Of a stretch of 15,350 nt of DNA, positions 1-15,350 are shown in pieces. The notes under the pieces were generated by a model. That model was not told the DNA's origin. It worked only from the letters and a program-made list of their open reading frames with translations, and ran no database searches. Source of the stretch: a virus (lineage: Duplodnaviria; Heunggongvirae; Uroviricota; Caudoviricetes); the IMG/VR virus record IMGVR_UViG_2690316153_000018; one strand, given 5' to 3'. A program made the translations under genes and the position numbers. Numbering within the stretch: position 1 is the first letter of the stretch; each line of letters begins with the position of its first letter.

Positions 1-105
1 ATAACGCTCACCGGCTTTTGACACAAAATATGTGCTGCCACGACGTCGCCAGTAGGTGTTCACCGTCGGCGGGTAAGGCAAAACAAATTCTATGCGTTCA
101 GTCAT
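1..105 (-). CDS. rusA: RusA-like Holliday-junction resolvase, N-terminal ~35 codons only; the gene runs off the left edge of the window
   Basis: Minus-strand ATG at 105..103 directly follows the TGA (108..106) of the upstream gene. Translation MTERIEFVLPYPPTVNTYWRRRGSTYFVSKAGERY carries the LPxPPxxNxYxR motif I associate with RusA. The frame stays open to position 1. Confidence 0.55.
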   Translation of the reverse strand, partial: MTERIEFVLPYPPTVNTYWRRRGSTYFVSKAGERY

Positions 106-1161
106 TCATGCTTTCCACTTCAGGACACCCGAATTTCTCGCGTGCATTAAAAAACGAATCAGCAACAACAGCTGGCTGCCGTGTTTTTCTTCAAAATCTT
201 TTACCCCGGCGTGCAGTTCGTTATGACATTTACGGCACAGCGGAATAACAAACAAATCATCAGCCTTTGTTCCCATCCCTCCCAGTCCATGACCAATGAT
301 GTGATGCGGATCATCTGCCTGATTACCGCACGTCATGCATTTCTGCGTTTTTACCCAGCGCGTGTATACAGGCATCTCTTCCCGTTGTGGTTTCTGGCGC
401 TGGAGATACTGAGCCGGTGACTCCGGATCAACGGCAATGCTGACCACCGTCTTTTCCTGTGGCGGGTTTTGCTGGTGGGCGTGAGGCAGCAGCGCAAGAT
501 TTTTTGTGCGCTGCTTCAGTATGCTGGTGGCGGTCTGCTCTCCCGGTACGATGTCGCTTTCGCGGTACACCGAGCGGATTTTTTCCGCACGCAATCCCAG
601 AGAACGACGTAATACTGCCTCCGGCAATACGTCCGCTACCTGATTGCAGACCGCCCACCAGGATAATTCAGCCAGCGATAACTCCCGCTCCTGTGTACCG
701 TTTATTGCGTGGCGGATGACGTCAATCATCCAGGATGTCAGGTTTTGTTGAGCAAGTTGCCCGAGTGATTCTGAAGTCTGGTCGCGTAACTGATTATCAC
801 AGTGCCAGCACAATACCATTGCGCCGGTACCGTAACGATGTATGACGGTTTCACTGTGGTGGTAGTCACCATGAGGCCACTGGCAGGATTTAACATGGCG
901 TAACAGCCAGTCAGACAATGCGCCAGCGCCGCCAGCAGCACGAATCACCCGCTCATCGCTGAAAAATGGCAGTAATGATTTATCTTCCGCGAGCGGCTGG
1001 CGCACGGCAGGAACAGTTCCTGACGGCAGACCGCGCATGCTTTTCGGTTCCGGCTCCACCAGCACCCGGGGATTATGAAATACCTGCATGGATTCACGGC
1101 CCGGCTTAAGGACCACCAGCCCGAGTTCCGGTACCAGAACAGGTCGAAGTAATACCCGCAC
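106..1161 (-). CDS. ydfU: DUF968 / YdfU-like phage protein with C-terminal HNH-like zinc-binding motif (nin-region protein)
   Basis: 351-codon ORF with GTG start at 1161 preceded by GGAGG at 4-nt spacing. C-terminus CMTCGNQADDPHHIIGHG...PLCRKCHNELH is a CxxC...H...CxxCH HNH/NinG-like motif. Matches my recollection of E. coli YdfU. Confidence 0.75.
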   Translation of the reverse strand: MRVLLRPVLVPELGLVVLKPGRESMQVFHNPRVLVEPEPKSMRGLPSGTVPAVRQPLAEDKSLLPFFSDERVIRAAGGAGALSDWLLRHVKSCQWPHGDYHHSETVIHRYGTGAMVLCWHCDNQLRDQTSESLGQLAQQNLTSWMIDVIRHAINGTQERELSLAELSWWAVCNQVADVLPEAVLRRSLGLRAEKIRSVYRESDIVPGEQTATSILKQRTKNLALLPHAHQQNPPQEKTVVSIAVDPESPAQYLQRQKPQREEMPVYTRWVKTQKCMTCGNQADDPHHIIGHGLGGMGTKADDLFVIPLCRKCHNELHAGVKDFEEKHGSQLLLLIRFLMHARNSGVLKWKA

Positions 1162-1925: not shown

Positions 1926-3029
1926 TCAAACAATCTGGAAAATATTTCTTGGATTTGTAATAGGTCTGTTGATGGAGAACAACTCACGAATTAAATCTTG
2001 GCTCAAGCCAGTTTTCATAAGAATTCTTAGCCAGGTTGCATCATCCAGCATTTCAATCGCCTCGGCCAGCATACCGGGTTCTTCAGGGCGCAAAAGTTCA
2101 TCACCAGGTTCAACTCTCGTATACCCTCTGGAATTAAGATGCATATAGCCAGTTCTTGCCTGTTCCTGGGTCAATAAGCCTAATGCGCTGGCTCGATAAA
2201 TACACATTTTAAGGCTGATTTTCCATCTAAGTTTAAATTCAACCAGAGCATTCCAGTCGAATTGCTTACCTCGTATTCGTGGAAATTCTTTAATGAAAGA
2301 TAACCTGGGAACTAATAAGGCGCTCGAAAAGTGATCGGCTTGTGATTCCGTAAGTTTATCACCTGTCGTTATGCCCTCATGCATTACTAAATGCCCTAAT
2401 TCATGACCTAAATCAGAGCGAAATCTACATATGCTTTTTTTAACATTGTTCCTGATGATAACAGGCCTGTTATTGTGAACAGTAAAAGCATCAACACGAT
2501 CATCGACTCCCGTAACATGCGCAACGATTACCCCTAAACTCTCCGCCAATTTAACCATTGATGATATAGGGCCAAGACCTAAATTCCAGGCACGGCGACA
2601 ATCTTCTGCCACTCGCTCAATATCATTCGGAGTAAGTAATTCAGCCCCTGGGTGCTCCGGTATGTTAACGTCAGGAAATTCGATTTCACCTTCAACAGCA
2701 GAAATTATAATATTAAGAATCTCAGCCCTGGCCAATACACTATTAGTCAGCGTTTGAGTCCTGGACTTCTTACTCCGAAAATGGCAGACATCACTTTCCA
2801 GAGCGTATTTTCGTTCAGTAAAAAGAAAACTGGACTTAATCATAAGCGCTGAAGATATTAACTCAAGACATTGCTCCGATGGCCTGCACCCCTTCTCCAG
2901 TTTGCTAACGAATTGCTTTGTCTTGCCAATTTTTTCGGCTAACTCTTCACAAGAAAGCCCAACAGCCATTCTCGCTAGTTTGAGCTTATCACCCCGATAC
3001 TCAGTGAAGTTATTCACCTGATGTTCCAT
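1926..3029 (-). CDS. Fusion protein: N-terminal XRE-family helix-turn-helix + C-terminal ImmA/IrrE-type (COG2856/DUF955-like) zinc metallopeptidase
   Basis: N-terminus LKLARMAVGLSCEELAEKIGKTKQFVSKLEKG is a typical XRE HTH. HExxH motif present in DLGHELGHLVMHEG. ORF track starts at GTG 3032; an ATG at 3029 is the likelier start. The 5' end overlaps the stop of the upstream gene by about 20 nt. Confidence 0.8.
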   Translation of the reverse strand: MEHQVNNFTEYRGDKLKLARMAVGLSCEELAEKIGKTKQFVSKLEKGCRPSEQCLELISSALMIKSSFLFTERKYALESDVCHFRSKKSRTQTLTNSVLARAEILNIIISAVEGEIEFPDVNIPEHPGAELLTPNDIERVAEDCRRAWNLGLGPISSMVKLAESLGVIVAHVTGVDDRVDAFTVHNNRPVIIRNNVKKSICRFRSDLGHELGHLVMHEGITTGDKLTESQADHFSSALLVPRLSFIKEFPRIRGKQFDWNALVEFKLRWKISLKMCIYRASALGLLTQEQARTGYMHLNSRGYTRVEPGDELLRPEEPGMLAEAIEMLDDATWLRILMKTGLSQDLIRELFSINRPITNPRNIFQIV

Positions 3030-3660
3030 CACTGCTCACATCCAAATCTTTATCCTTCGTACGCCGACGAAGAGGCACCTTATTAATCTCCGCTTCGTCA
3101 GGGAGTGTGTTATAATCAAGAGGCATAAGCGGCATCGATGCTGTAGATTGATGAGAAACTATACTAATCTGAGCACCATAAGTATTAAATCCAACAAGAG
3201 CTACCTCCCAACGAGGCAGTGTGGACTCTAATTCACCATCGCCCTCTTCGGATAAAAAAGGCTCAGCTATGACTCGCCATGTAATATCTTGCTCAGCCTC
3301 AACATCACCAAACAATGAGAGTTGCTCATACTCTACTTTATTTCGACGCAGACGATGTTTCTTTTTGGGGTTATTAATGCAATCTTTGGTAAATTGTAGC
3401 GGAACTTTATTTAAAGCAACTACATAGTCCAACCCCTTGGAAATCATCTCAAGGCCAGGAATTGCATCTTCATTTTGAATAAGATGATTTCTGACCCAAT
3501 CATAAGCCCTTACACCTTCAGACCAGTTGCTGTCTAATGCGTGCTTATGATAGTACAGCTGCTCAAGTACGTTAGCGATCTCCGCCAACAAGTGGCGAAC
3601 ATAGTTTTCAGCAAGATAAGGTTGAAATTCCCAACAAGGAGCTAACTGATTTTCATTCAT
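3010..3660 (-). CDS. hypothetical protein (216 aa), translationally coupled to the downstream HTH-peptidase gene
   Basis: ORF with ATG at 3660; its stop (3012..3010) overlaps the start of the HTH-ImmA gene. No motif I can assign. Confidence 0.7.
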   Translation of the reverse strand: MNENQLAPCWEFQPYLAENYVRHLLAEIANVLEQLYYHKHALDSNWSEGVRAYDWVRNHLIQNEDAIPGLEMISKGLDYVVALNKVPLQFTKDCINNPKKKHRLRRNKVEYEQLSLFGDVEAEQDITWRVIAEPFLSEEGDGELESTLPRWEVALVGFNTYGAQISIVSHQSTASMPLMPLDYNTLPDEAEINKVPLRRRTKDKDLDVSSDGTSGE

Positions 3661-3825: not shown

Positions 3826-3981
3826 TTACTCCTCAGGTTCGTAAGCTGTGAAGACAGCGACCTCCGTCTGGCCGGTTCGGATTCGTACCTCGCAGAGGTC
3901 TTTCCTCGTTACCAGTGCCGTCACTATGACGGTTAAACAGATGACGATCAGGGCGATTAACATCGCCTTTTGCTGCTTCAT
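3826..3981 (-). CDS. hokD: Hok/Gef-family small membrane toxin (51 aa from the internal ATG; the ORF track extends to 4038)
   Basis: Translation MKQQKAMLIALIVICLTVIVTALVTRKDLCEVRIRTGQTEVAVFTAYEPEE has a single TM helix and the conserved C-terminal Cys/Arg/Tyr-Glu pattern of Hok-family toxins. Matches my recollection of E. coli HokD (RelF). Confidence 0.8.
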   Translation of the reverse strand: MKQQKAMLIALIVICLTVIVTALVTRKDLCEVRIRTGQTEVAVFTAYEPEE

Positions 3982-4660
3982 AGCCTGCTTCTCCTTGCCT
4001 TTCGGCACGTAAGAGGCTAACCTACGTGTGTAGAGCATAGATATGGCCTCAGATTAATGTTAAGCGTCTTGCCGGACGCGTAATGTTAACTGGGGCTTTT
4101 CTCTATCTGCCTTTGGTGTTGATGCCCGAGGCAGATAGCCTCAAGCACCCGCAGCAATTCTACTTAACTACCGTTACCTCGCCAATATGAAATCAATCAG
4201 AAAGGTGATCCATAAGAACAACAGCAAGACAATAAATTGCCATTACAGCAGCAATAGCCAGCGCACATTTGAGAACCAGCACCACAACCTCCTGTATTGG
4301 ACGTACACCAGTCCTGATAAATATGAGGCTGTCTCGTCAGTGATTCAATACAACTACTGGGTATAGTTTCTATGATTTTGTTCTGTGGAAATGGAAAACA
4401 GCAACCAGTCACCACCAGCACTTCTTTAAACATGCCAAGTCACACGCAAGCCAACATTATAGTTCCCTTTGAGCGAGCAGATGAAGCTAGCAAAAATATT
4501 GATCACTTAGGATGCATTACTAACGTTGCTATGTGTTAACGAACAGGGAGTGGGTCATCAGCATAAATATTTATGCAGTAGGTTTCTTTTAGGACTAGAT
4601 TAATCAAAAACATTTAGATAAAATTATAAAATCAAGAAATTGGTGGCAATTAATCTTTAA

Positions 4661-4689: not shown

Positions 4690-4724
4690 AGATTAGCTTT
4701 TTTTTTGAGTGTTTGGAGAGTAAA

Positions 4725-5420
4725 ATGTTAGAACCACCAAAGAGTTATAATGAAATGTTGCCTATGCTCCATAAGGCGACTTTTATTACTACATTTATAT
4801 TTTACCTATCATTAGTCATTTATGGCTACATGCCATTGGTTGGCATTAATGCCAAGTATATCCCCCCCGTTAAAGACTACGAGGAATTTATTAAATGGAT
4901 ATTAACCTTTGGCATATTACCAATTGCATCTTCAGTTTTTTGGTCAGTAATTAGTGGAGCTTTAGATCTACATAATAATGTAGCAAAAATTATTGGAATA
5001 AGGAAGATGTGGGATAGTCATTTAATTATTAAACCATTAGCAAAAATTGCAGGCGTTACGAGAAAATTAACTACTGATGAATCTCACAAGGTAATGAGTA
5101 AACTGTATTACCCAGAAGTTAAAGAGTTAAAAGACAAACATTACGTTGAACTTTTCTGGAACAAAGTTTATTACTTTTGGGTTTTCTTTGAACATACAGT
5201 AATCGCATTTGTTACTATTTTAATAATAAGTATCGCCAAATTAACAAATATATTCTCTGTTACTGGCTCTTTAATTAATCTTTGGTTGTGGATTATTTCT
5301 CTTGTCGCATTTGACTTCCTTATTTTCATAGCATCAGTTAAACCAAGAACAGAAAGCCAAGTAAGACAAATACCTGATAGCAAAATAAAAGAATTCTTTA
5401 ACAATAACAATATTTTTTAA
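4725..5420 (+). CDS. Integral membrane protein with four predicted TM helices (2 TM + ~65-aa loop + 2 TM), function unknown
   Basis: ATG at 4725 preceded by GGAGAG at about 5-nt spacing (the ORF track starts at TTG 4713). Four hydrophobic stretches: ATFITTFIFYLSLVIYGYMPLVGI, FIKWILTFGILPIASSVFWSVISGAL, VYYFWVFFEHTVIAFVTILIISIA, TGSLINLWLWIISLVAFDFLIFIASV. Codon usage is strongly AT-rich. Confidence 0.8.
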   Translation: MLEPPKSYNEMLPMLHKATFITTFIFYLSLVIYGYMPLVGINAKYIPPVKDYEEFIKWILTFGILPIASSVFWSVISGALDLHNNVAKIIGIRKMWDSHLIIKPLAKIAGVTRKLTTDESHKVMSKLYYPEVKELKDKHYVELFWNKVYYFWVFFEHTVIAFVTILIISIAKLTNIFSVTGSLINLWLWIISLVAFDFLIFIASVKPRTESQVRQIPDSKIKEFFNNNNIF

Positions 5421-5426
5421 ACGAGG

Positions 5427-6086
5427 TTGATTTTGAATTACAAAATAAATGGAATAAACATACGTTCAGAAAATGCAGCGAAACCGCACACTATGCCATC
5501 TAACTATCTCTGTAAACAGATTGAAAGCACTAATAAAAATGGCAATGCCCTTGATTTTGGATGTGGAAAACTTAGATATTCAGAACAATTAGTAAATAAA
5601 TTTGAAACTGTGACATTTTTAGATTCCAGAAGACAACTAGAAAGAGTGCAAATTATCAGAGGTGTACAAACCACGATTCCAGATTACGTGATAAATAACT
5701 ATAAGAATGCTAATATTGTTTCTTATGAAAATATAGATAAAATAACAAATCATTATGATTTCATACTTTGCGCAAACGTGCTTTCCGCAATTCCATGTGA
5801 ATCCACAATTCACAAAGTCCTCAGTGCGATTAGAGAATTATTAAAGAGTGATGGTGAAGCACTGATTGTCAATCAATACAAAAGTTCTTATTTCAAGAGG
5901 TACGAGAGCGGTATTAAACATTTGCATGGGTATATATACCAAAACTCTCGCAATGCTTTCTACTATGGTTTATTAGATGTGGATACTGTAAGTAAAATAT
6001 GCTCAGATAATAATTTAGAAATAATAAAATCATGGAGCAAAGCAGGTAGTTCATATGTGGTTGTTGGTAAACATATACATATTTAG
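5427..6086 (+). CDS. Small class-I SAM-dependent methyltransferase-fold protein (about 217-219 aa), substrate unknown
   Basis: Motif I ALDFGCGKL, acidic residue ending beta-2 (TVTFLDS) and a motif-IV-like YDFILCANVLSAIP. Start is TTG at 5427 or 5433; GAGG at 5423..5426 gives good spacing to 5433. The first in-frame ATG is at 5493. Lies 6-12 nt after the stop of the membrane-protein gene. Confidence 0.7.
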   Translation: MILNYKINGINIRSENAAKPHTMPSNYLCKQIESTNKNGNALDFGCGKLRYSEQLVNKFETVTFLDSRRQLERVQIIRGVQTTIPDYVINNYKNANIVSYENIDKITNHYDFILCANVLSAIPCESTIHKVLSAIRELLKSDGEALIVNQYKSSYFKRYESGIKHLHGYIYQNSRNAFYYGLLDVDTVSKICSDNNLEIIKSWSKAGSSYVVVGKHIHI

Positions 6087-6400
6087 TTTATTTCAACAAA
6101 TTATTAGAAAGAGTGATTTGCTTGTTAATTATTAGCTCGGCAGTGCCGGATCAACATGACCCTGCCACTTAGGCCATTGCCGGTTTACCTACTTTTGTAA
6201 GGTTCAGCATGAAGTTTTTATATACTCTTCCTAATATCAATAGTGATGCTCGCTTATGTTAGCTGCTTCTTGTACATAGTAGCCTTCTCCGACAGTACTG
6301 CAATGAGCGGAGAGTAAAAGTCGATAAACAATAAGGAGGTTCACAATAAATATTTCTCGGTGAAACTTTCAAAGCATTCTCTGTTTTGCTAAATCGACAA

Positions 6401-7300
6401 TTATAAATCAACAACATTTAGTGTTATATCAATATTATTTAGCCTTGCAATCTCTGATGAATCACTTGCTATTTTAGCTTTTAATTTATCAATATTAATC
6501 ATATCTTCATGGCTTATATAAACCATATCACCTTGGTTAACTTTAGATTTGTTCACTATGGCTTGAATAACAGACAAATCATCCATTACACCTCTCATAA
6601 ATTTCACCATGCTTTGATCTTTGAAGTCAGATATCGATTTTGAACGTTGCTTACGTTGAATTGTTCCTTTTGTAATTACTTCATTAATTTCTTTTAAACC
6701 AGTGAGCATATCAGACAGACTGCCTTCGCAACTCATCCGATGTTTTATTGCATTGCGATTAATAATATTGAGTATAATTTCGAGTGAATCTTTATCACTC
6801 CATGGATGTAATGATGTATAATCATGATGACGTCGAATGGCGTCAATCATATCCTGGACCATATCTTCATCTGCTTTATCGCAAAGTTCATTCACGAAAT
6901 AGCTGGGGTCGATTATTTTACAATAACTTGGAGTTAGGTATCTTGAGGCTTTACAAAAACCAAAAATATATAAAGTAGAGTATTTATCTTTCAGACTCTC
7001 TCCTATTTCATTTATTTTCTCAAAAGATTCGATAGTTTTTTTAATTTTTGCTGGACTTGCATTCGTAGTAACTTGAACTGCTATCATGTTTTTATTATCA
7101 GCTAAATCAATGGCGGGAAAATTAACTTTAATCTGATTCATGTTTACCAGCTCACCCATTTTCAGCGCGCGAAACATAAAGATGGTCAATGACTCAATTA
7201 TTCTTTCCATGTCATGAAAGCCTGCCTGTTTGCGTTGCGCGATATAAAGCTGGAGTAGTGCAATATCACTCTGTAAGTTTCTAATAAGTGGATCAATCAT
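6401..7300 (-). CDS. hypothetical protein (299 aa); N-terminal region resembles, from memory, a SMEK-type domain
   Basis: ORF with ATG at 7300 and AAGGA about 9 nt upstream. N-terminal HDMERIIESL and NFPAIDLADNKNMIAVQVTTNASPAKIKKTIESF resemble the signature I associate with SMEK-domain proteins; not verified by HMM. AT-rich codon usage; convergent with the 4725..6086 operon. Confidence 0.75.
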   Translation of the reverse strand: MIDPLIRNLQSDIALLQLYIAQRKQAGFHDMERIIESLTIFMFRALKMGELVNMNQIKVNFPAIDLADNKNMIAVQVTTNASPAKIKKTIESFEKINEIGESLKDKYSTLYIFGFCKASRYLTPSYCKIIDPSYFVNELCDKADEDMVQDMIDAIRRHHDYTSLHPWSDKDSLEIILNIINRNAIKHRMSCEGSLSDMLTGLKEINEVITKGTIQRKQRSKSISDFKDQSMVKFMRGVMDDLSVIQAIVNKSKVNQGDMVYISHEDMINIDKLKAKIASDSSEIARLNNIDITLNVVDL

Positions 7301-9780: not shown

Positions 9781-10188
9781 ATGGAAACAAAAAATTTAAC
9801 TATCGGCGAACGCATTAGGTATCGTCGGAAAAACCTCAAACACACCCAAAGGTCTCTTGCTAAAGCCCTGAAAATCTCCCATGTGTCTGTATCACAATGG
9901 GAACGGGATGATAGTGAACCTACAGGGAAGAACCTTTTTGCCCTCAGCAAAGTATTGCAATGCTCACCAACATGGATTCTATTTGGCGATGAAGACAAGC
10001 AACCAACACCACCTGTTGAGAAGCCAGTTGCCTTATCCCCCAAAGAACTAGAGCTCCTTGAGCTGTTTAATGCACTGCCAGAATCAGAACAGGATACCCA
10101 GCTCGCCGAAATGCGAGCTCGAGTAAAAAACTTCAATAAACTCTTTGAAGAATTACTAAAAGCCCGTCAGCGGACAAATAAAAGATAA
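9781..10188 (+). CDS. dicA: cI-like HTH repressor DicA (XRE family)
   Basis: 135-aa product METKNLTIGERIRYRRKNLKHTQRSLAKALKISHVSVSQWERDDSEP... with a clear XRE-type HTH; matches my recollection of E. coli DicA. Confidence 0.9.
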   Translation: METKNLTIGERIRYRRKNLKHTQRSLAKALKISHVSVSQWERDDSEPTGKNLFALSKVLQCSPTWILFGDEDKQPTPPVEKPVALSPKELELLELFNALPESEQDTQLAEMRARVKNFNKLFEELLKARQRTNKR

Positions 10189-11229: not shown

Positions 11230-11282
11230 TTTCTGGTGACGTTTGGCGGTATCAGTTTTACTCCGTGACTGCTCTGCCGCCC
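11230..11282 (+). ncRNA. dicF: DicF small regulatory RNA (53 nt), an Hfq-dependent ftsZ-targeting sRNA processed from the dicB-operon transcript
   Basis: Sequence TTTCTGGTGACGTTTGGCGGTATCAGTTTTACTCCGTGACTGCTCTGCCGCCC followed by TTTTT matches DicF as I remember it, in the expected position between ydfC and dicB after a roughly 340-nt untranslated leader. Confidence 0.7.
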
Positions 11283-11456: not shown

Positions 11457-11645
11457 ATGGAAACGTTATTACCAAACGTTAATACGTCTGAAGGTTGTTT
11501 TGAAATTGGTGTCACTATCAGTAACCCTGTATTTACTGAAGATGCCATTAACAAGAGAAAACACGAACGGGAGCTATTAAATAAAATATGCATTCTTTCA
11601 ATGCTGGCCCGTTTACGTCCGATACAAAAAGGATGCTGGCAATGA
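11457..11645 (+). CDS. dicB: Cell-division inhibitor DicB (62 aa; acts with MinC)
   Basis: In-frame ATG at 11457 gives METLLPNVNTSEGCFEIGVTISNPVFTEDAINKRKHERELLNKICILSMLARLRPIQKGCWQ (62 aa), matching my recollection of DicB. The ORF-track start at 11352 is an upstream extension. Confidence 0.85.
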   Translation: METLLPNVNTSEGCFEIGVTISNPVFTEDAINKRKHERELLNKICILSMLARLRPIQKGCWQ

Positions 11646-11833
11646 ATACAGCATTTGCACTTGTTCTGACAGTTTTTCTTGTTTCCGGAGAGCCAGTTGA
11701 TATTGCAGTCAGTGTTCACAGGACAATGCAGGAGTGTGTGACTGCAGCAACCGAACAGAAAATTCCCGGTAACTGTTACCCGGTCGATAAAGTTATTCAC
11801 CAGGATAATAACGAAATCCCGGCAGGTCTTTAA
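11642..11833 (+). CDS. ydfD: YdfD-like small membrane/lysis-associated protein (63 aa)
   Basis: ATG at 11642 overlaps the dicB TGA (ATGA overlap); product MNTAFALVLTVFLVSGEPVDIAVSVHRTMQECVTAATEQKIPGNCYPVDKVIHQDNNEIPAGL has an N-terminal hydrophobic helix. Confidence 0.8.
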   Translation: MNTAFALVLTVFLVSGEPVDIAVSVHRTMQECVTAATEQKIPGNCYPVDKVIHQDNNEIPAGL

Positions 11834-11925
11834 AACAGTTCCGTAATAAACATCCGGTTTCATTCTTATATGCCAGCAATGGCAGGGATTTGTTCACCCT
11901 TAAATCTGTAATGAGGTAAAACAAA

Positions 11926-14043
11926 ATGAGTAAAGTCTTTATTTGCGCTGCTATTCCTGATGAACAGGCCATAAAAGAAGATAGCGCTGTTGCGGTGGCC
12001 ACTGCCATTGAAGCTGGTGATGAGCGTCGCGCACGCGCAAAATTTCATTGGCAATTTCTGGAGCAATTCCCTGCAGCTCAGGACTGCGCTTATAAATTTA
12101 TTGTCTGTGAGGATAAACCCGGCATACCCCGCCCTGCCCTCGATTCCTGGGATGCTGAATATATGCAGGAAAACCGCTGGGATGAGGAGTCTGCTTCCTT
12201 TGTCCCGGTTGAGACTGAATCCGATCCGATGAACGTCACTTTTGACAAGCTGGCCCCTGAAGTACAGAACGCTGTCATGGTTAAGTTCGACACATGTGAA
12301 AACATCACCGTTGATATGGTTATTAGCGCACAGGAATTGTTGCAGGAAGACATGGCAACATTCGACGGACATATCGTTGAAGCGTTGATGAAAATGCCAG
12401 AAGTTAACGCCATGTATCCGGAGCTTAAGCTGCATGCCATCGGGTGGGTTAAGCATAAATGTAAGCCTGATGCCCTTCGCTACGACCGCCAGACTATTTT
12501 TGGCCTTGTCCGTGAACGTCCGATCGACATTCACAAAGACCCTGTGGCACTGAACAAATACATTACTGAATACCTGACTACAAAGGGCGTGTTTGAAGAT
12601 GAAGGAACAAATCAGAGCGCAACTGATACTCTCTCGTCGTCAGTACCAGAAACTGATGCAGTGGAAACGGCAATTCCGGACAACGAAAAAACCGAATGCA
12701 AAGTGGAAGTCGAACCATCTGTAGAGCGTGAGGGGCCGTTCTACTTCCTCTTCACCGACAAGGATGGCGAAAAATACGGTCGCGCAAACAAACTTTCTGG
12801 TCTGGATAAGGCACTGGCTGCCGGGGCTACTGAAATCACGAAAGAAGAATATTTCGCCCGCAAAAACAGTACATACTCAGGTTCACAACAAAATACTGGT
12901 GCATCTGACACGACCGCACAACCAGAGCCGGTAAAAGTTACCGCTGACGAAGTAAACAAAATTATGCAGGCAGCCAATATCAGCCAGCCTGACGCCGATA
13001 AGTTGCTTGCTGCCTCTCGCGGAGAATTTGTTGCAGGGATTAGCGACCCGAATGATCCGAAATGGGTAAAGGGGATGGAAACCCGCGATTCTGTAAACCA
13101 GAACCAGCAAGAATCGGAACAGAACGACCAGAAAGCGGAACAAAACAGCCCAAATACGCAACAAAACGAGCCAGAAACGAAACAACCTGAGCCAGTAGCG
13201 CAACAGGAACCGGAAAAAGTCTGCACCGCCTGCGGTCAAAGCGGTGGTGGCAACTGCCATGATTGTGGCGCGGTGATGGGTGACGCAACATACCAGGAAA
13301 CATTCGATGAAGAGAATCAGGTTGAAGTTCAGGAAAATGATCCGGAGGAAATGGAAGGCGCTGAACATCCACACAAGGAGAATGCTGGTAGCGCTCAGGA
13401 TCACGCCAGCGATAGTGAAACTGGCGAGACGGCAGATCCCTTAATTACGGTGAACGGTCATCACGTTATCACATCCACCAGCAGGACGTGTGACCATCTA
13501 ATGATCGACCTTGAAACCATGGGAAAAAATCCTGATGCCCCGATTATCTCAATAGGTGCAATATTTTTCGATCCGCAAACCGGAGATATGGGACCGGAAT
13601 TTAGTAAGACTATTGATCTGGAAACTGCTGGCGGAGTCATTGATCGGGACACCATTAAATGGTGGCTTAAGCAATCACGCGAAGCGCAATCTGCCATTAT
13701 GACCGATGAAATCCCGTTAGATGATGCACTGTTACAATTGCGGGAATTTATCGACGAAAACTCCGGTGAATTTTTTGTTCAGGTCTGGGGTAACGGTGCA
13801 ACTTTCGACAACGTGATTTTACGCCGTTCATATGAACGGCAGGGGATCCCCTGCCCGTGGCGTTACACCAATGATCGCGATGTAAGAACGATGGTTGCTC
13901 TGGGACTGGTGATGGATTTCGACGCAAGAACGACTATTCCATTCGAAGGTGAACGCCATAACGCTCTGAACGATGCACGTTACCAGGCGAAATACGTTTC
14001 AGCCATCTGGCAAAAACTGCTCCCGAGTCAGGCTGATTTTTAA
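11926..14043 (+). CDS. ydfE: Full-length YdfE-like protein (705 aa) with C-terminal DEDD-type (DnaQ-like) 3'-5' exonuclease domain
   Basis: Long uninterrupted ORF. C-terminus has exonuclease motifs MIDLETMG (Exo I), [12 protein letters not shown] (Exo II) and HNALNDARY (Exo III). A CxxC-x8-CxxC zinc-ribbon-like motif ([16 protein letters not shown]) and an acidic/Gln-rich low-complexity linker precede it. Confidence 0.85.
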
Positions 14044-14110: not shown

Positions 14111-14353
14111 ATGTACGAATTAACTCTATCTCCAGCAGAGATTAAAGAGATCACGAAATACGAGCGATACACAAAACAGCAACACCAGTTAAGACTGCAC
14201 GGCATCCCATTTGTAATCGGCCCTAAAAACGAACCCATAGTTCTCCGCAGGGATATTCCACACGGTCTGACAACGATGCCAAAAACATCTGAACTGGTTT
14301 CTGCTGAACCCGATTTTGAGGCGCTGAACAATGGGAAGACCAAGAAAAAATAA
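14111..14353 (+). CDS. xis: Excisionase-like protein (about 80 aa), overlapping the integrase start
   Basis: ATG at 14111 within ORF 13973..14353; the 3' end overlaps the int start by 23 nt, as in lambda xis/int; small basic product. Assigned by position and size, not by a recognised motif. Confidence 0.55.
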   Translation: MYELTLSPAEIKEITKYERYTKQQHQLRLHGIPFVIGPKNEPIVLRRDIPHGLTTMPKTSELVSAEPDFEALNNGKTKKK

Positions 14354-15350
14354 AAAAGATAATGTACTGCCACCGCGGGTTAGATCGAATGGTTACAGTT
14401 ACGTGTGGAAACCCGAAGGAAGTACAAGAAGTATAGGGCTAGGAAGAGTGCGGAAAACCAGCGTAGCTAAAGTCTGGCAAAATTATGAACTGGAAAAAGC
14501 AAAACTCCACAACATAATGACCGTAGCTAAATTATGGCACATGTTTATGGACTCCCCTGCATTTACAGAACTGGCCCCCCGAACCCAAAAAGATTATCGA
14601 CAACATCAGAAGGCGTTGCTGATGGTATTCGGAAAAGTGCTTGCTGATAATGTCAAAACTGAGCAGGTAAGAATTTTCATGGATAAACGAGGGCTTGAGA
14701 GCAAGACCCAGGCAAATCATGAACTGGCAAGCCTGAGTCGAGTATACGGGTGGGGATATGAGCGTGGGTATGTGAAGAATAACCCATGCAAAGGAGTCAG
14801 AAAATTCTCTCTTAAAGCCCGCACTGTTTACATCACCGATGAACAGTATGCGGCGATATATGCGGAAGCAATTCCACAGTTACGCATTGCAATGGAGATT
14901 TCCTATCTCTGTGCGGCAAGACTCGGTGATGTGCTTGAGTTGAAATGGCAGGATATTATGGATAAAGGGATCTACATTGAGCAAAACAAAACCGGCACCA
15001 AACAAATCAAGGAATGGTCACCGCGATTACGTACAGCGATCCAGTTAGCCCGAAATGTATCTTCCTGTACATGCGAATATGTGATCAATACAACCAAAGG
15101 CGGGAAAGTCATAGCTAAAACGCTGAATAACTGGTGGAATCAGGCTAAACGCGCAGCCGAGCAAAAAGTTGGCGTTCCGTTCGGGTGTAATTTTCACGAC
15201 ATAAAAGCCAAGGGGATCTCAGATTACGAAGGCAGCAGTCGCGACAAACAAATTTTCAGCGGGCATAAAACAGAAAATCAGGTGTTGATTTACGATCGTA
15301 AAACAAAAATCACACCAACACTGGATTTGCCGCTCGTGGTTAGCAAGTAG
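14331..15350 (+). CDS. int: Lambda-family tyrosine integrase (339 aa, apparently intact)
   Basis: N-terminus MGRPRKNKKDNVLPPRVRSNGYSYVWKPEGSTRSIGLGRV resembles lambda Int. Catalytic-region residues are visible (KWQDIMDKGIYIEQNKTG..., FHDIKAKG, SGHKTENQVLIYDRK with the putative catalytic Tyr). The stop codon is the last three bases of the window. Confidence 0.9.
   Translation: MGRPRKNKKDNVLPPRVRSNGYSYVWKPEGSTRSIGLGRVRKTSVAKVWQNYELEKAKLHNIMTVAKLWHMFMDSPAFTELAPRTQKDYRQHQKALLMVFGKVLADNVKTEQVRIFMDKRGLESKTQANHELASLSRVYGWGYERGYVKNNPCKGVRKFSLKARTVYITDEQYAAIYAEAIPQLRIAMEISYLCAARLGDVLELKWQDIMDKGIYIEQNKTGTKQIKEWSPRLRTAIQLARNVSSCTCEYVINTTKGGKVIAKTLNNWWNQAKRAAEQKVGVPFGCNFHDIKAKGISDYEGSSRDKQIFSGHKTENQVLIYDRKTKITPTLDLPLVVSK

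Follow-up and report, generated by a model that had tools for sequence, protein, structure and literature searches.

Among described proteins, exodeoxyribonuclease VIII (RecE) of the Rac prophage shares with the gene product analysed here a middle module made up of a conserved motif, a Cys4 motif and an acidic stretch. The recE gene also occupies the same position on the prophage map, in the terminal part of the early-left operon and ahead of xis-int. The RecE head contains PF06630, which the protein studied here lacks, and the RecE nuclease is of the PD-(D/E)XK type and acts 5'-3', whereas the protein here ends in a DEDDh 3'-5' domain. In Rac, recT lies directly after recE; here a DUF4224 gene and an integrase gene are found instead. 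According to a review, the N-terminal region of RecE boosts linear-linear recombination by the full-length protein (PMC11611040).

The DexA exonucleases of phages T4 and T2 belong to the DEDDh fold family, like the C-terminal tail of our protein, with which their five catalytic residues align at an overall identity of about 30%. Here, in contrast, the domain forms the tail of a multidomain protein of 705 or 823 aa. DexA homologues are commonest in Escherichia, and one bacterial homologue, EcD, was reported in 2025 to degrade the T4 genome and to protect E. coli (PMC12153337). EcD is a separate, stand-alone protein (its primers give MIDTET...TIPETY), and the 823-aa relative of our protein, WP_000048381, is not listed in Table S3 of that paper. 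Stand-alone Rv2179c-like exonucleases also occur in Escherichia phage Lys8385Vzw (gp32, 190 aa) and Yersinia phage PY54 (gp51). Both have PF16473 like the tail here and are 54-60% identical to the full-length tail, but they lack the head, tether and Cys4 motif and lie at another location in the phage genome. Lys8385Vzw gp32 (59% identical) was considered as a candidate for EcD (HAK9828821.1) and is not EcD; the single IMG/VR match of the 20-nt EcD reverse primer is not an ORF.

In E. coli K-12 the corresponding gene, ydfE (b1577), is an IS2-truncated remnant of an 823-aa family. K-12 YdfE is 96% identical to the family form over residues 1-256, where IS2 cuts it at codon 256 and IS2E follows, as expected from the initial annotation, which had called the gene YdfE-like and disrupted by an IS element in K-12. 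In the same K-12 region DicA represses dicBp (PMC10448788), and dicB has a phage-exclusion function (PMC6832061). The literature searched yielded no biochemical or genetic work on any protein of this architecture, and it mentions ydfE in gene lists only.

Here we analyse the ydfE-like gene in a 15,350-nt stretch of Caudoviricetes DNA (IMG/VR record IMGVR_UViG_2690316153_000018; the window). The 705-codon gene is a rare, recent, shortened copy of a very common, catalogued E. coli prophage gene. We put at roughly 70% the probability of our overall reading, that this is a rare and recent in-frame deletion allele of a YdfE-family exonuclease of Qin/Rac-type lambdoid prophages, with a working nuclease and an impaired head function.

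A rare in-frame deletion allele of a common prophage gene

The gene is one ATG-initiated open reading frame (Table 1), and the single 705-codon frame previously described is present in both the ORF list and the translation. The description of this frame as uninterrupted fails if it is taken to mean full length: the frame is open, but it encodes the 823-aa family protein without residues 181-298. Compared with WP_000048381.1, a prophage protein named "exonuclease", the 705-aa protein is 100% identical outside a single in-frame gap of 118 codons (354 bp). It likewise matches an 823-position PHROG profile in two stretches and skips positions of about 180-297. The complete head (about 345 residues) of the 823/824-aa standard form is thus not found in this copy, which is not the intact form missing from K-12. 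One long open frame should not be equated with an intact gene.

In full-length alleles the missing 354 bp are bracketed by direct repeats, AGCCTGGTGCC and AGCCTGATGCC, which are 11 bp long and imperfect (10/11 matches). Slippage or recombination between them would have removed residues 181-298. Among 5,426 complete E. coli genomes, none has a one-piece match to the deletion junction. The exact 705-aa protein forms a one-member cluster and was found in four NCBI draft contigs, all from a single lineage. Two separate assemblies with this allele are 100% identical across 12.3 kb, so the allele represents one lineage and an assembly artefact is unlikely. Two further rare alleles (P0095 and P0108) bear other in-frame deletions in the same region, which by this comparison of sequences could be dispensable.

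The gene itself is ordinary, as it belongs to a prophage family of E. coli that is already known and catalogued. Members related to WP_000048381.1 (823 aa) combine YdfE_N, YdfE_C and Rv2179c-like domains and are encoded in the order dicF-dicB-ydfD-exo-xis-int, as is the 705-aa gene, and precomputed matches to YdfE_N (PF27430) and YdfE_C (PF27432) are recorded for the exact 705-aa protein. Over 8,000 close relatives are on record; 823-824 aa is their standard length, and NCBI names most of them 3'-5' exoribonuclease. DNA of the YdfE-type head is kept in 4,007 of the 5,426 complete genomes, often in several copies. In a search for the family gene, about a quarter of the genomes with a match fall short of 80% coverage. 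In the head, the small domain, the conserved motif and the nuclease dN/dS does not exceed 0.18. The family matters more than this copy: roughly three in four complete E. coli genomes have a gene with its head, and purifying selection acts on all of its folded parts.

Table 1. Features of the gene and its neighbourhood in window coordinates. L002 is an identical contig (L002 coordinates are window coordinates minus 1925); L001 contains a matching region.
Feature	Coordinates	Strand	Basis
DicA/CI-like repressor gene, head of operon region	9781..10188	+	Pfam HTH_3 and Phage_CI_repr
DicF sRNA	11231..11282	+	Rfam RF00039, 76.7 bits vs gathering score 48
dicB	11457-11645	+	Pfam DicB on L002
ydfD-like DUF1482 gene, directly upstream of exonuclease gene	11642-11833	+	Pfam DUF1482 on L002
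Shine-Dalgarno GAGG, 9 nt before ATG	11913..11916	+	Direct sequence reading
CDS of 705 aa and a stop codon; allele of 823-aa YdfE-family prophage exonuclease with an in-frame deletion	11926..14043	+	ORF list, translation, comparison with WP_000048381.1
YdfE-type head, aa 1-180 (alpha/beta subdomain, then helices)	11926..12465	+	K-12 YdfE identity, AlphaFold, dN/dS
Deletion junction AGCCTGATGCC, hybrid survivor of the direct repeats AGCCTGGTGCC / AGCCTGATGCC	12464..12474	+	BLAST segments overlap there
aa 181-227, remaining C-terminal half of RecE-shared helical domain (family 299-345)	12466..12606	+	BLASTP; dN/dS 0.03-0.12
aa 269-314, small beta-hairpin/helix domain	12730..12867	+	AlphaFold (family residues 390-431, pLDDT 84-91); dN/dS 0.02-0.07
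aa 335-387, conserved motif region common to RecE-like proteins	12928..13086	+	Alignment of 18 RecE/YdfE-family representatives; dN/dS 0.08-0.18
aa 388-431, Gln/Glu-rich low-complexity linker, length-polymorphic	13087..13218	+	Translation; AlphaFold pLDDT below 50
Cys4 motif C433-x2-C436-x7-C444-x2-C447, putative zinc knuckle/ribbon	13222..13266	+	Translation
aa 453-522, acidic segment common with RecE up to nuclease boundary	13282..13491	+	BLASTP and DNA alignment with K-12 recE; dN/dS about 0.7-1.2
DEDDh 3'-5' exonuclease domain, aa 524-705	13495..14040	+	Pfam PF16473, DexA alignment; dN/dS 0.14-0.17
Catalytic codons	D528 13507-13509, E530 13513-13515, D628 13807-13809, H678 13957-13959, D683 13972-13974	+	DexA alignment
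DUF4224 excisionase-like gene, directly downstream	14111-14353	+	Gene calls; annotation of matching region in L001
Tyrosine integrase	14331-15350	+	Gene calls; annotation of matching region in L001

The head and the deleted segment

The 823-aa family protein divides into a head (about 345 residues, folded), a tether and a C-terminal DEDDh domain. The tether is long, acidic/Gln-rich and by prediction mostly disordered, and it contains the small beta domain, the conserved motif and the putative Cys4 knuckle. The first ~230 residues of the 705-aa protein had been treated as one N-terminal region. They are not one unit: the YdfE-type head occupies residues 1-180, and from residue 181 onward the sequence is homologous to RecE. 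In the AlphaFold model of the 823-aa form the whole head (residues 1-344) has a pLDDT of about 85-92. Residues 1-180 have values of about 82-94 and a dN/dS of 0.05-0.10; the allele of phage vB_EcoS-689R5 carries a RecE-type head and was left out of the dN/dS estimates for the head. The nuclease tail of this model was poorly modelled, as the underlying alignment mixed different tails, and no conclusion was drawn there.

Within the deleted stretch AlphaFold places helices at residues 185-205, 247-257, 270-281 and 286-296 (823-aa numbering). Compared with a diverged allele, the deleted segment has a dN/dS of 0.20, with 0.05 and 0.16 for helices and 0.80 for a loop. The deletion took away four predicted head helices, including half of the helical domain shared with RecE, and spared the tether and the nuclease. 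As the lost segment is helical by prediction and evolves under purifying selection across the family, the head of the 705-aa allele is probably damaged, with the nuclease intact. AlphaFold confidence is not a measure that can demonstrate destabilisation of the head by the deletion.

A dS of about 0.013 in the deleted codons relative to three alleles raised the possibility of a nucleotide-level element. We rejected this in favour of shared mosaic sequence: near-identity extends over about nt 200-960, a block wider than the deletion, and a diverged allele gives an ordinary dS of 0.36.

Searches with the head returned no informative fold relatives. The best Foldseek match in the PDB had an E value of 0.64, and the best match in BFVD (E 0.09) was to uncharacterised phage proteins of 70-85 aa. 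Targeting or partner binding by the head is therefore a guess. Any head-dependent role, be it targeting, partner binding or regulation, would most likely be impaired in the 705-aa form.

A middle module shared with RecE

Residues 181-508 of the 705-aa protein are homologous to residues 314-592 of K-12 RecE (BLASTP, E 4e-62), which ties this part of the protein to an N-terminal region of RecE that is itself uncharacterised. In the 823-aa form the homology begins at residue 262, which falls within the stretch that was deleted, and the N-terminal half of the helical domain shared with RecE is lost from the 705-aa protein. Over residues 355-508 the DNA identity with K-12 recE is 87%, and the amino-acid identity is about 85-90% by eye. 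By both BLASTP and DNA alignment the homology ends at the boundary of the nuclease domain. The small beta-hairpin/helix domain (aa 269-314) is missing from K-12 RecE. Judging from these alignments, the central part of the protein, Cys4 motif included, is the module that also precedes the nuclease domain of RecE. The 705-aa protein scores 254 bits against the exoVIII equivalog NF007259 (NCBIfam), below the cut-off of 1269, and covers profile positions 322-603 only.

The acidic/Gln-rich linker was quoted correctly in the initial annotation and lies at aa 392-430. Its length varies in the family, with a 7-aa repeat insertion in one allele (P0003) and a 42-nt indel relative to recE. The zinc ribbon proposed next to it does have two CxxC pairs, but they are spaced by seven residues rather than the eight given. 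All four cysteines are kept in every homologue with a complete segment, K-12 RecE included, in the alignment of 18 representatives; the whole segment is missing from seven more distant RecE-like representatives. In the AlphaFold model the Cys4 stretch has a pLDDT below 50-55 and forms short strands only. One singleton allele has the substitution C447G.

The nuclease tail

The C-terminal DnaQ-like exonuclease recognised earlier from its DxE, D and H...D motifs is matched by Pfam PF16473 (Rv2179c-like) at residues 524-695 with 221 bits (cut-off 27, E 1.1e-65), covering profile positions 2-177 of 177. Loss of the DEDD residues would have spoken against this assignment. The five residues D528, E530, D628, H678 and D683 (DxE, D, H-x4-D) are all present, are invariant in a six-sequence family alignment and match the catalytic residues of T-even DexA. 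The closest solved relative, and the sole sequence match in the PDB, is T4 DexA (8KEL/8KEN, E 3e-8). From its sequence we infer that the tail is a metal-dependent 3'-5' exonuclease. It would take nucleotides singly off free 3' ends, with D528, E530, D628 and D683 binding two metal ions and H678 acting as the general base. PF16473 is named after the exoribonuclease Rv2179c, and RNA could be a substrate.

Other DexA positions are retained to differing degrees. Among the two DexA residues reported to recognise 5hmC, D169 corresponds to D664, which is invariant, and W152 corresponds to T648 (Tyr or Cys in other alleles), with W645 three residues upstream. D90, on which tetramer formation depends in DexA and which is Ala in EcD, is kept here as D600, and S87 corresponds to P597.

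Operon context

The gene order matches that of K-12 (ydfABC-dicF-dicB-ydfD), with all genes on the same strand and a DicA-like repressor upstream; DUF1391 is also present (Pfam, Rfam). In the initial annotation the gene closed the dicB operon, just before xis-int, and this agrees with the genes on either side: DicF, dicB and a ydfD-like gene upstream, and the DUF4224 and integrase genes downstream. No convincing intrinsic terminator was found in the 92-nt gap between the ydfD-like and exonuclease genes, where there is a weak 5-bp hairpin (fold z-score 0.18). As the last gene of a DicA-controlled dicF-dicB-ydfD early-left operon, it would be expressed upon prophage derepression; repression in lysogens and expression on induction are a reading from operon position. 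In K-12, however, northern blots revealed no dicBp transcript that ran as far as ydfE (PMC10448788), so co-expression with dicB is putative.

The early-left operon here, in its entire length, has no recT, bet or erf gene. Nor does any of these genes lie beside a DEDDh variant with a RecE-type head that was inspected in a Rac-like prophage.

Possible functions

Our best guess is that the protein acts as a stand-alone nuclease on DNA 3' ends (of phage, host or competitor) or on short oligonucleotides, and not as one half of an exonuclease-annealase pair. Recombination, anti-defence and superinfection exclusion, the roles suggested in the initial annotation, are hypothetical, and classical two-component recombination becomes less likely in view of the 3'-5' polarity and of an operon that has no annealase gene.

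It is also conceivable, if on balance unlikely, that the 705-aa allele is functionless in a defective prophage, and that its frame is open because the deletion is recent and a multiple of three. The allele is private to one lineage, is identical to its parent outside the gap and is too recent for selection to have acted; the segment it has lost is constrained in intact alleles. Disruption is also frequent in the family, as seen from IS2 in K-12 and from incomplete coverage in about a quarter of the matching genomes. However, the deletion has left the start signals, the tether and the nuclease domain unharmed. Stand-alone tails of ~190 aa are normal phage genes, so the tail folds without the head, and the two other in-frame head deletions also argue against decay.

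We are doubtful that the protein is an exoribonuclease which, at prophage induction, shortens RNA from its 3' end or breaks down short oligoribonucleotides (host or phage transcripts, nucleotide signals). Both Pfam (Rv2179c-like '3'-5' exoribonuclease') and the NCBI name of most members point that way, and in the DexA paper the DexA dimer is overlaid on the human oligoribonuclease REXO2. Rv2179c itself is reportedly an Mg-dependent 3' exoribonuclease (Abendroth et al., J Biol Chem 2014), which would count for an RNA substrate. Yet Rv2179c is absent from the PDB sequence matches even at E 10, where the DNA exonuclease DexA is present. In addition, the scaffold to which the domain is joined occurs elsewhere on the DNA exonuclease RecE, and the gene lies at the DNA-transaction end of the operon, beside xis and int.

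HREX-type anti-phage defence, in which a DexA/EcD-like tail would selectively digest the hydroxymethylcytosine DNA of T-even phages and so shield the host, appears improbable. It draws on T4 DexA as the only solved sequence relative, on the EcD precedent, on the invariant D664, on the exclusion of phage by the adjoining dicB, and on the wide distribution of the head among complete genomes. Against it, EcD is a different, stand-alone protein, the identity to DexA is only about 30%, the W152 position is not kept as Trp, and the tetramer residue D90 is retained. PADLOC models gave no match to the 705-aa protein, and an operon repressed in lysogens fits poorly with a standing defence.

The last alternative, a RecE analogue that resects ends for phage recombination together with an annealase or recombinase supplied by the host or by another locus, is in keeping with the RecE middle module, the recE-like position, the swapping of heads and middles between RecE-type and DEDDh-type proteins and the effect of the N-terminal region in full-length RecE, but we consider it very unlikely, because a 3'-5' nuclease of opposite polarity would destroy the 3' tails needed by RecT, Red-beta or RecA, and because none of the three contexts inspected for DEDDh-tailed forms has an annealase gene.

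Module exchange in the family

The shared module links our family to RecE, a workhorse of recombineering, and the role of the shared head, motif and Cys4 region would explain how full-length RecE differs from its nuclease domain. It would also reveal whether a 3'-5' nuclease that serves in exclusion or in DNA processing is widespread among prophages. The 705-aa allele is a natural deletion that could be used as a ready-made mutant. As a long shot related to the HREX idea, the non-catalytic region of RecE and YdfE, made up of head, conserved motif and Cys4 tether, may be a reusable 'delivery platform' of lambdoid prophages, with the DEDDh versions, which most E. coli genomes contain, as an induction-linked nuclease against phages or competitors. 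In that case interchangeable nucleases (5'-3' PD-(D/E)XK, 3'-5' DEDDh and a third, phrog_7838 type) would serve one target or host partner, and natural in-frame head deletions such as that of the 705-aa allele could be used as informative separation-of-function alleles.

Members of the family combine a common middle with either of two head types and with one of at least three nuclease tails, which have been shuffled around it. The PF06630 and PD-(D/E)XK domains, which are absent from the 705-aa protein, are present in two relatives (P0191 and P0124).

An in-frame deletion in the head of a predicted prophage exonuclease

The initial annotation described a single, uninterrupted 705-codon ydfE-like frame. 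The ATG-initiated ORF is real (ORF list, translation of the window; Table), and most of the domain reading attached to it was right. It is not an intact version of the gene, as had been supposed, but a rare in-frame deletion allele, and probably an impaired one. Compared with WP_000048381.1, an 823-aa protein annotated as 'exonuclease' whose numbering we use for the family, the window protein is identical at each residue but lacks residues 181-298. The top matches in complete E. coli genomes, including the 100%-identical ones, are all in two pieces and span 2,472 bp versus 2,118, and none of 5,426 complete genomes gave a one-piece match to a query spanning the junction. Close relatives number more than 8,000, with 823-824 aa as their standard length; the 705-aa form is a one-sequence cluster.

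In the full-length gene, the missing 354 bp end in AGCCTGGTGCC and AGCCTGATGCC, which are identical at 10 of 11 positions. Given these short direct repeats and the one hybrid copy left in the window, the event bears the signature of slippage or short-homology deletion. Four contigs from NCBI draft assemblies of E. coli encode the exact 705-aa protein. One of these contigs, CYED01000026.1, is 100% identical to the window; a second assembly is 100% identical across 12.3 kb. Because two assemblies carry it identically, the 705-aa form is most likely a real allele confined to a single lineage.

In two further rare alleles, P0095 (731 aa) and P0108 (781 aa), codons of the same head region are also lost in frame. 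These deletions (residues ~164-255 and ~199-240, respectively) are independent of the one in the window, and the end of the P0095 deletion coincides with codon 256, the site of the IS2 interruption in K-12 ydfE. Such deletions may reflect deletion-prone sequence, tolerance of loss in the head, or ascertainment bias, since only in-frame events resemble full proteins.

Parts lost to the deletion

Modelled with AlphaFold, either within the whole 823-aa protein or as its first 350 residues alone, the head has a pLDDT of ~82-94. Lost with the deletion are the predicted helix 185-205, the low-confidence loop after it and three more helices (247-257, 270-281 and 286-296). Homology to RecE, the Rac-prophage exodeoxyribonuclease VIII, begins at residue 262 in the full-length form, and the window protein aligns to RecE only from its own residue 181 (family residue 299); thus, the deletion cuts a conserved domain rather than a spacer. 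Compared with a properly diverged allele (P0079/L013), the deleted codons have a dS of 0.36 and a dN/dS of 0.20, and so the segment is under purifying selection in the family. By part, dN/dS is 0.05 for helix 181-206, 0.16 for helices 245-298 and 0.80 for the loop (207-244).

A near-absence of synonymous change specific to the deleted codons was considered and rejected, because it belongs to a shared mosaic block. This near-identical DNA (gene nt ~200-960) is found in the alleles of L001, L010, L011 and L012, which are otherwise 5-10% diverged, and is consistent with frequent recombination of co-resident prophage copies. Genomes have a median of 2 places matching the exonuclease gene, and a maximum of 10.

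Nuclease tail, shared middle and domain shuffling

The reading of a C-terminal DEDD exonuclease domain was borne out. The only PDB sequence relative of the tail is T4 DexA (8KEL/8KEN, E 3e-8), a 3'-5' exodeoxyribonuclease whose catalytic residues align with D528, E530, D628, H678 and D683, which are invariant in the YdfE family. Upstream, homology to RecE covers window residues 181-508 (RecE 314-592, E 4e-62). The two proteins are near-identical from the conserved motif through the Cys4 motif and acidic stretch (87% at the DNA level), and the homology stops exactly where the nuclease domains start. The CxxC pair reported earlier is present, with x7 rather than x8 spacing (C433-x2-C436-x7-C444-x2-C447). 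All four cysteines are kept in each homologue with a complete segment; distant RecE-like proteins lack the entire Cys4 segment. Within the non-catalytic region, no other piece is as well conserved between RecE-like and YdfE-like proteins as the RGEF(V/Y)... motif, which is kept even in relatives without the Cys4 segment and could be a partner docking site. The Gln/Glu-rich linker, also correctly recognized, has an extra 7-aa repeat (EQNGQKA) in the allele P0003 and differs from K-12 recE by a 42-nt indel. Values of dN/dS point to strong selection on four parts, at 0.05-0.10 in the head, 0.02-0.07 in the small beta domain, 0.08-0.18 in the motif and 0.14-0.17 in the nuclease; the acidic stretches, near 1 or above, are under relaxed selection.

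Queried with the non-catalytic part, a set of 1.8 billion representative proteins yielded only 173 relatives, and every head/tail combination is represented among the full-length ones. The YdfE-type head is joined to a DEDDh tail in the window gene's own family and to a third type of tail, matching only phrog_7838 ('exonuclease'). The RecE-type head (PF06630) precedes a DEDDh tail in P0124, P0182 and phage vB_EcoS-689R5, and a PD-(D/E)XK tail in RecE and P0191. The tail alone forms a 190-aa gene in temperate phages. There is one case of a RecE-head-RecT fusion. P0187 (703 aa) has a RecT domain attached directly to RecE's N-terminal domain plus middle module, and its Cys4 motif is severed past the first pair; it represents a natural fusion lacking an exonuclease, or else a deletion that joined recE to recT.

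Table. Features of the window and of the exonuclease family protein
Feature	Window (nt)	Residues (aa)	Strand	Basis or remark
HTH and ImmA/IrrE metallopeptidase protein	first of pair in 1926-3660	368 in length	-	RmrA, E 6e-105
216-aa protein	second of pair in 1926-3660	216 in length	-	RmrT, E 5e-25
hok/sok type I toxin-antitoxin locus	3826-4150		-	
Hok/Gef-family ORF	3826-3981			
sok antisense RNA	3976-4150			Rfam, 114 bits; overlaps Hok/Gef-family ORF
235-aa protein	4713-5420	235 in length	+	no family match
Class I SAM methyltransferase	5427-6086		+	
SMEK-domain protein	6401-7300	299 in length	-	weak PADLOC match, Aga-type nuclease-associated model
DicF RNA	11231-11282			Rfam, 76.7 bits
Shine-Dalgarno GAGG	9 nt 5' of 705-codon ORF		+	sequence reading
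705-codon ORF	11926-14043	1-705	+	ORF list, translation
Single hybrid repeat copy	12464-12474			DNA comparison with full-length gene
Small beta domain		269-314		
RGEF(V/Y)... motif	12928-13086	335-387		RecE aa ~453-485
Gln/Glu-rich linker	13087-13218	388-431		length varies among alleles
DEDDh tail		524-705		Pfam Rv2179c-like, 221 bits
Alpha/beta subdomain		family 1 to ~100		AlphaFold
Helices		family, after subdomain to 205		AlphaFold
Low-confidence loop		family 207-241		AlphaFold
Further helices		family 247-338		AlphaFold

Possible function

From the sequence, we predict with fair confidence a two-metal, 3'-5' exonucleolytic removal of nucleotides. Candidate substrates are DNA ends, short oligonucleotides or RNA; we favour DNA, given the scaffold shared with RecE, the kinship with DexA and the location beside xis-int. 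Two points speak against a RecET-like recombination pair. The polarity is the reverse of RecE's, and an annealase is missing: recT directly follows recE in the Rac prophage, whereas no annealase gene follows the DEDDh-tailed genes in the three contexts inspected. Bacterial DexA homologues ('EcD') were proposed to defend against T4 by digesting 5hmC-DNA (PMC12153337, 2025). EcD, however, is a stand-alone protein different from that in the window. Of the highlighted residues, the window protein has a conserved equivalent of D169 but not of W152, and it retains that of D90, the tetramer-forming residue of DexA that is Ala in EcD. No PADLOC model matches the window protein. We therefore take the EcD/HREX link as a lead, not a classification. 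For the head, Foldseek gave nothing useful against the PDB (best E 0.64) or viral predicted structures (best E 0.09).

The gene family is already catalogued, with annotations in thousands of genomes and three Pfam families, and the window itself holds nothing new in kind. Of the 5,426 complete genomes, 4,798 have matches to the full gene and 4,007 to the YdfE-type head. We found no functional studies of ydfE or its full-length relatives in the literature; a family that is common, constrained and experimentally unstudied has some worth as a target.

Operon and other prophage cargo

The 705-codon gene closes a Qin-type early-left operon, and its placement by the initial annotation at the end of the dicB operon before xis-int agrees with the gene order. 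Along the strand, this runs DicA/CI-like repressor, homologues of ydfA, ydfB and ydfC, DicF RNA, dicB, a ydfD-like gene and the 705-codon gene, followed by a DUF4224 excisionase-like gene and a tyrosine integrase. The kinship with a K-12 gene disrupted by an IS element was likewise correct: the orthologous K-12 ydfE, an annotated pseudogene, is 96% identical to family residues 1-256 and then runs into IS2E. The operon position suggests expression on prophage derepression, and no convincing terminator was detected upstream of the gene. Northern blots in K-12, however, revealed no dicBp transcript extending to ydfE (PMC10448788).

Elsewhere in the window, two overlapping genes match the PADLOC RmrA and RmrT models and are a candidate anti-phage or toxin-antitoxin-like two-gene system carried as prophage cargo. 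Further cargo fills the interval from hok/sok to the replication genes (4713-7300). This looks like a variable slot for defence genes, because in FDAARGOS_1059 a SIR2-family gene occupies the equivalent slot.
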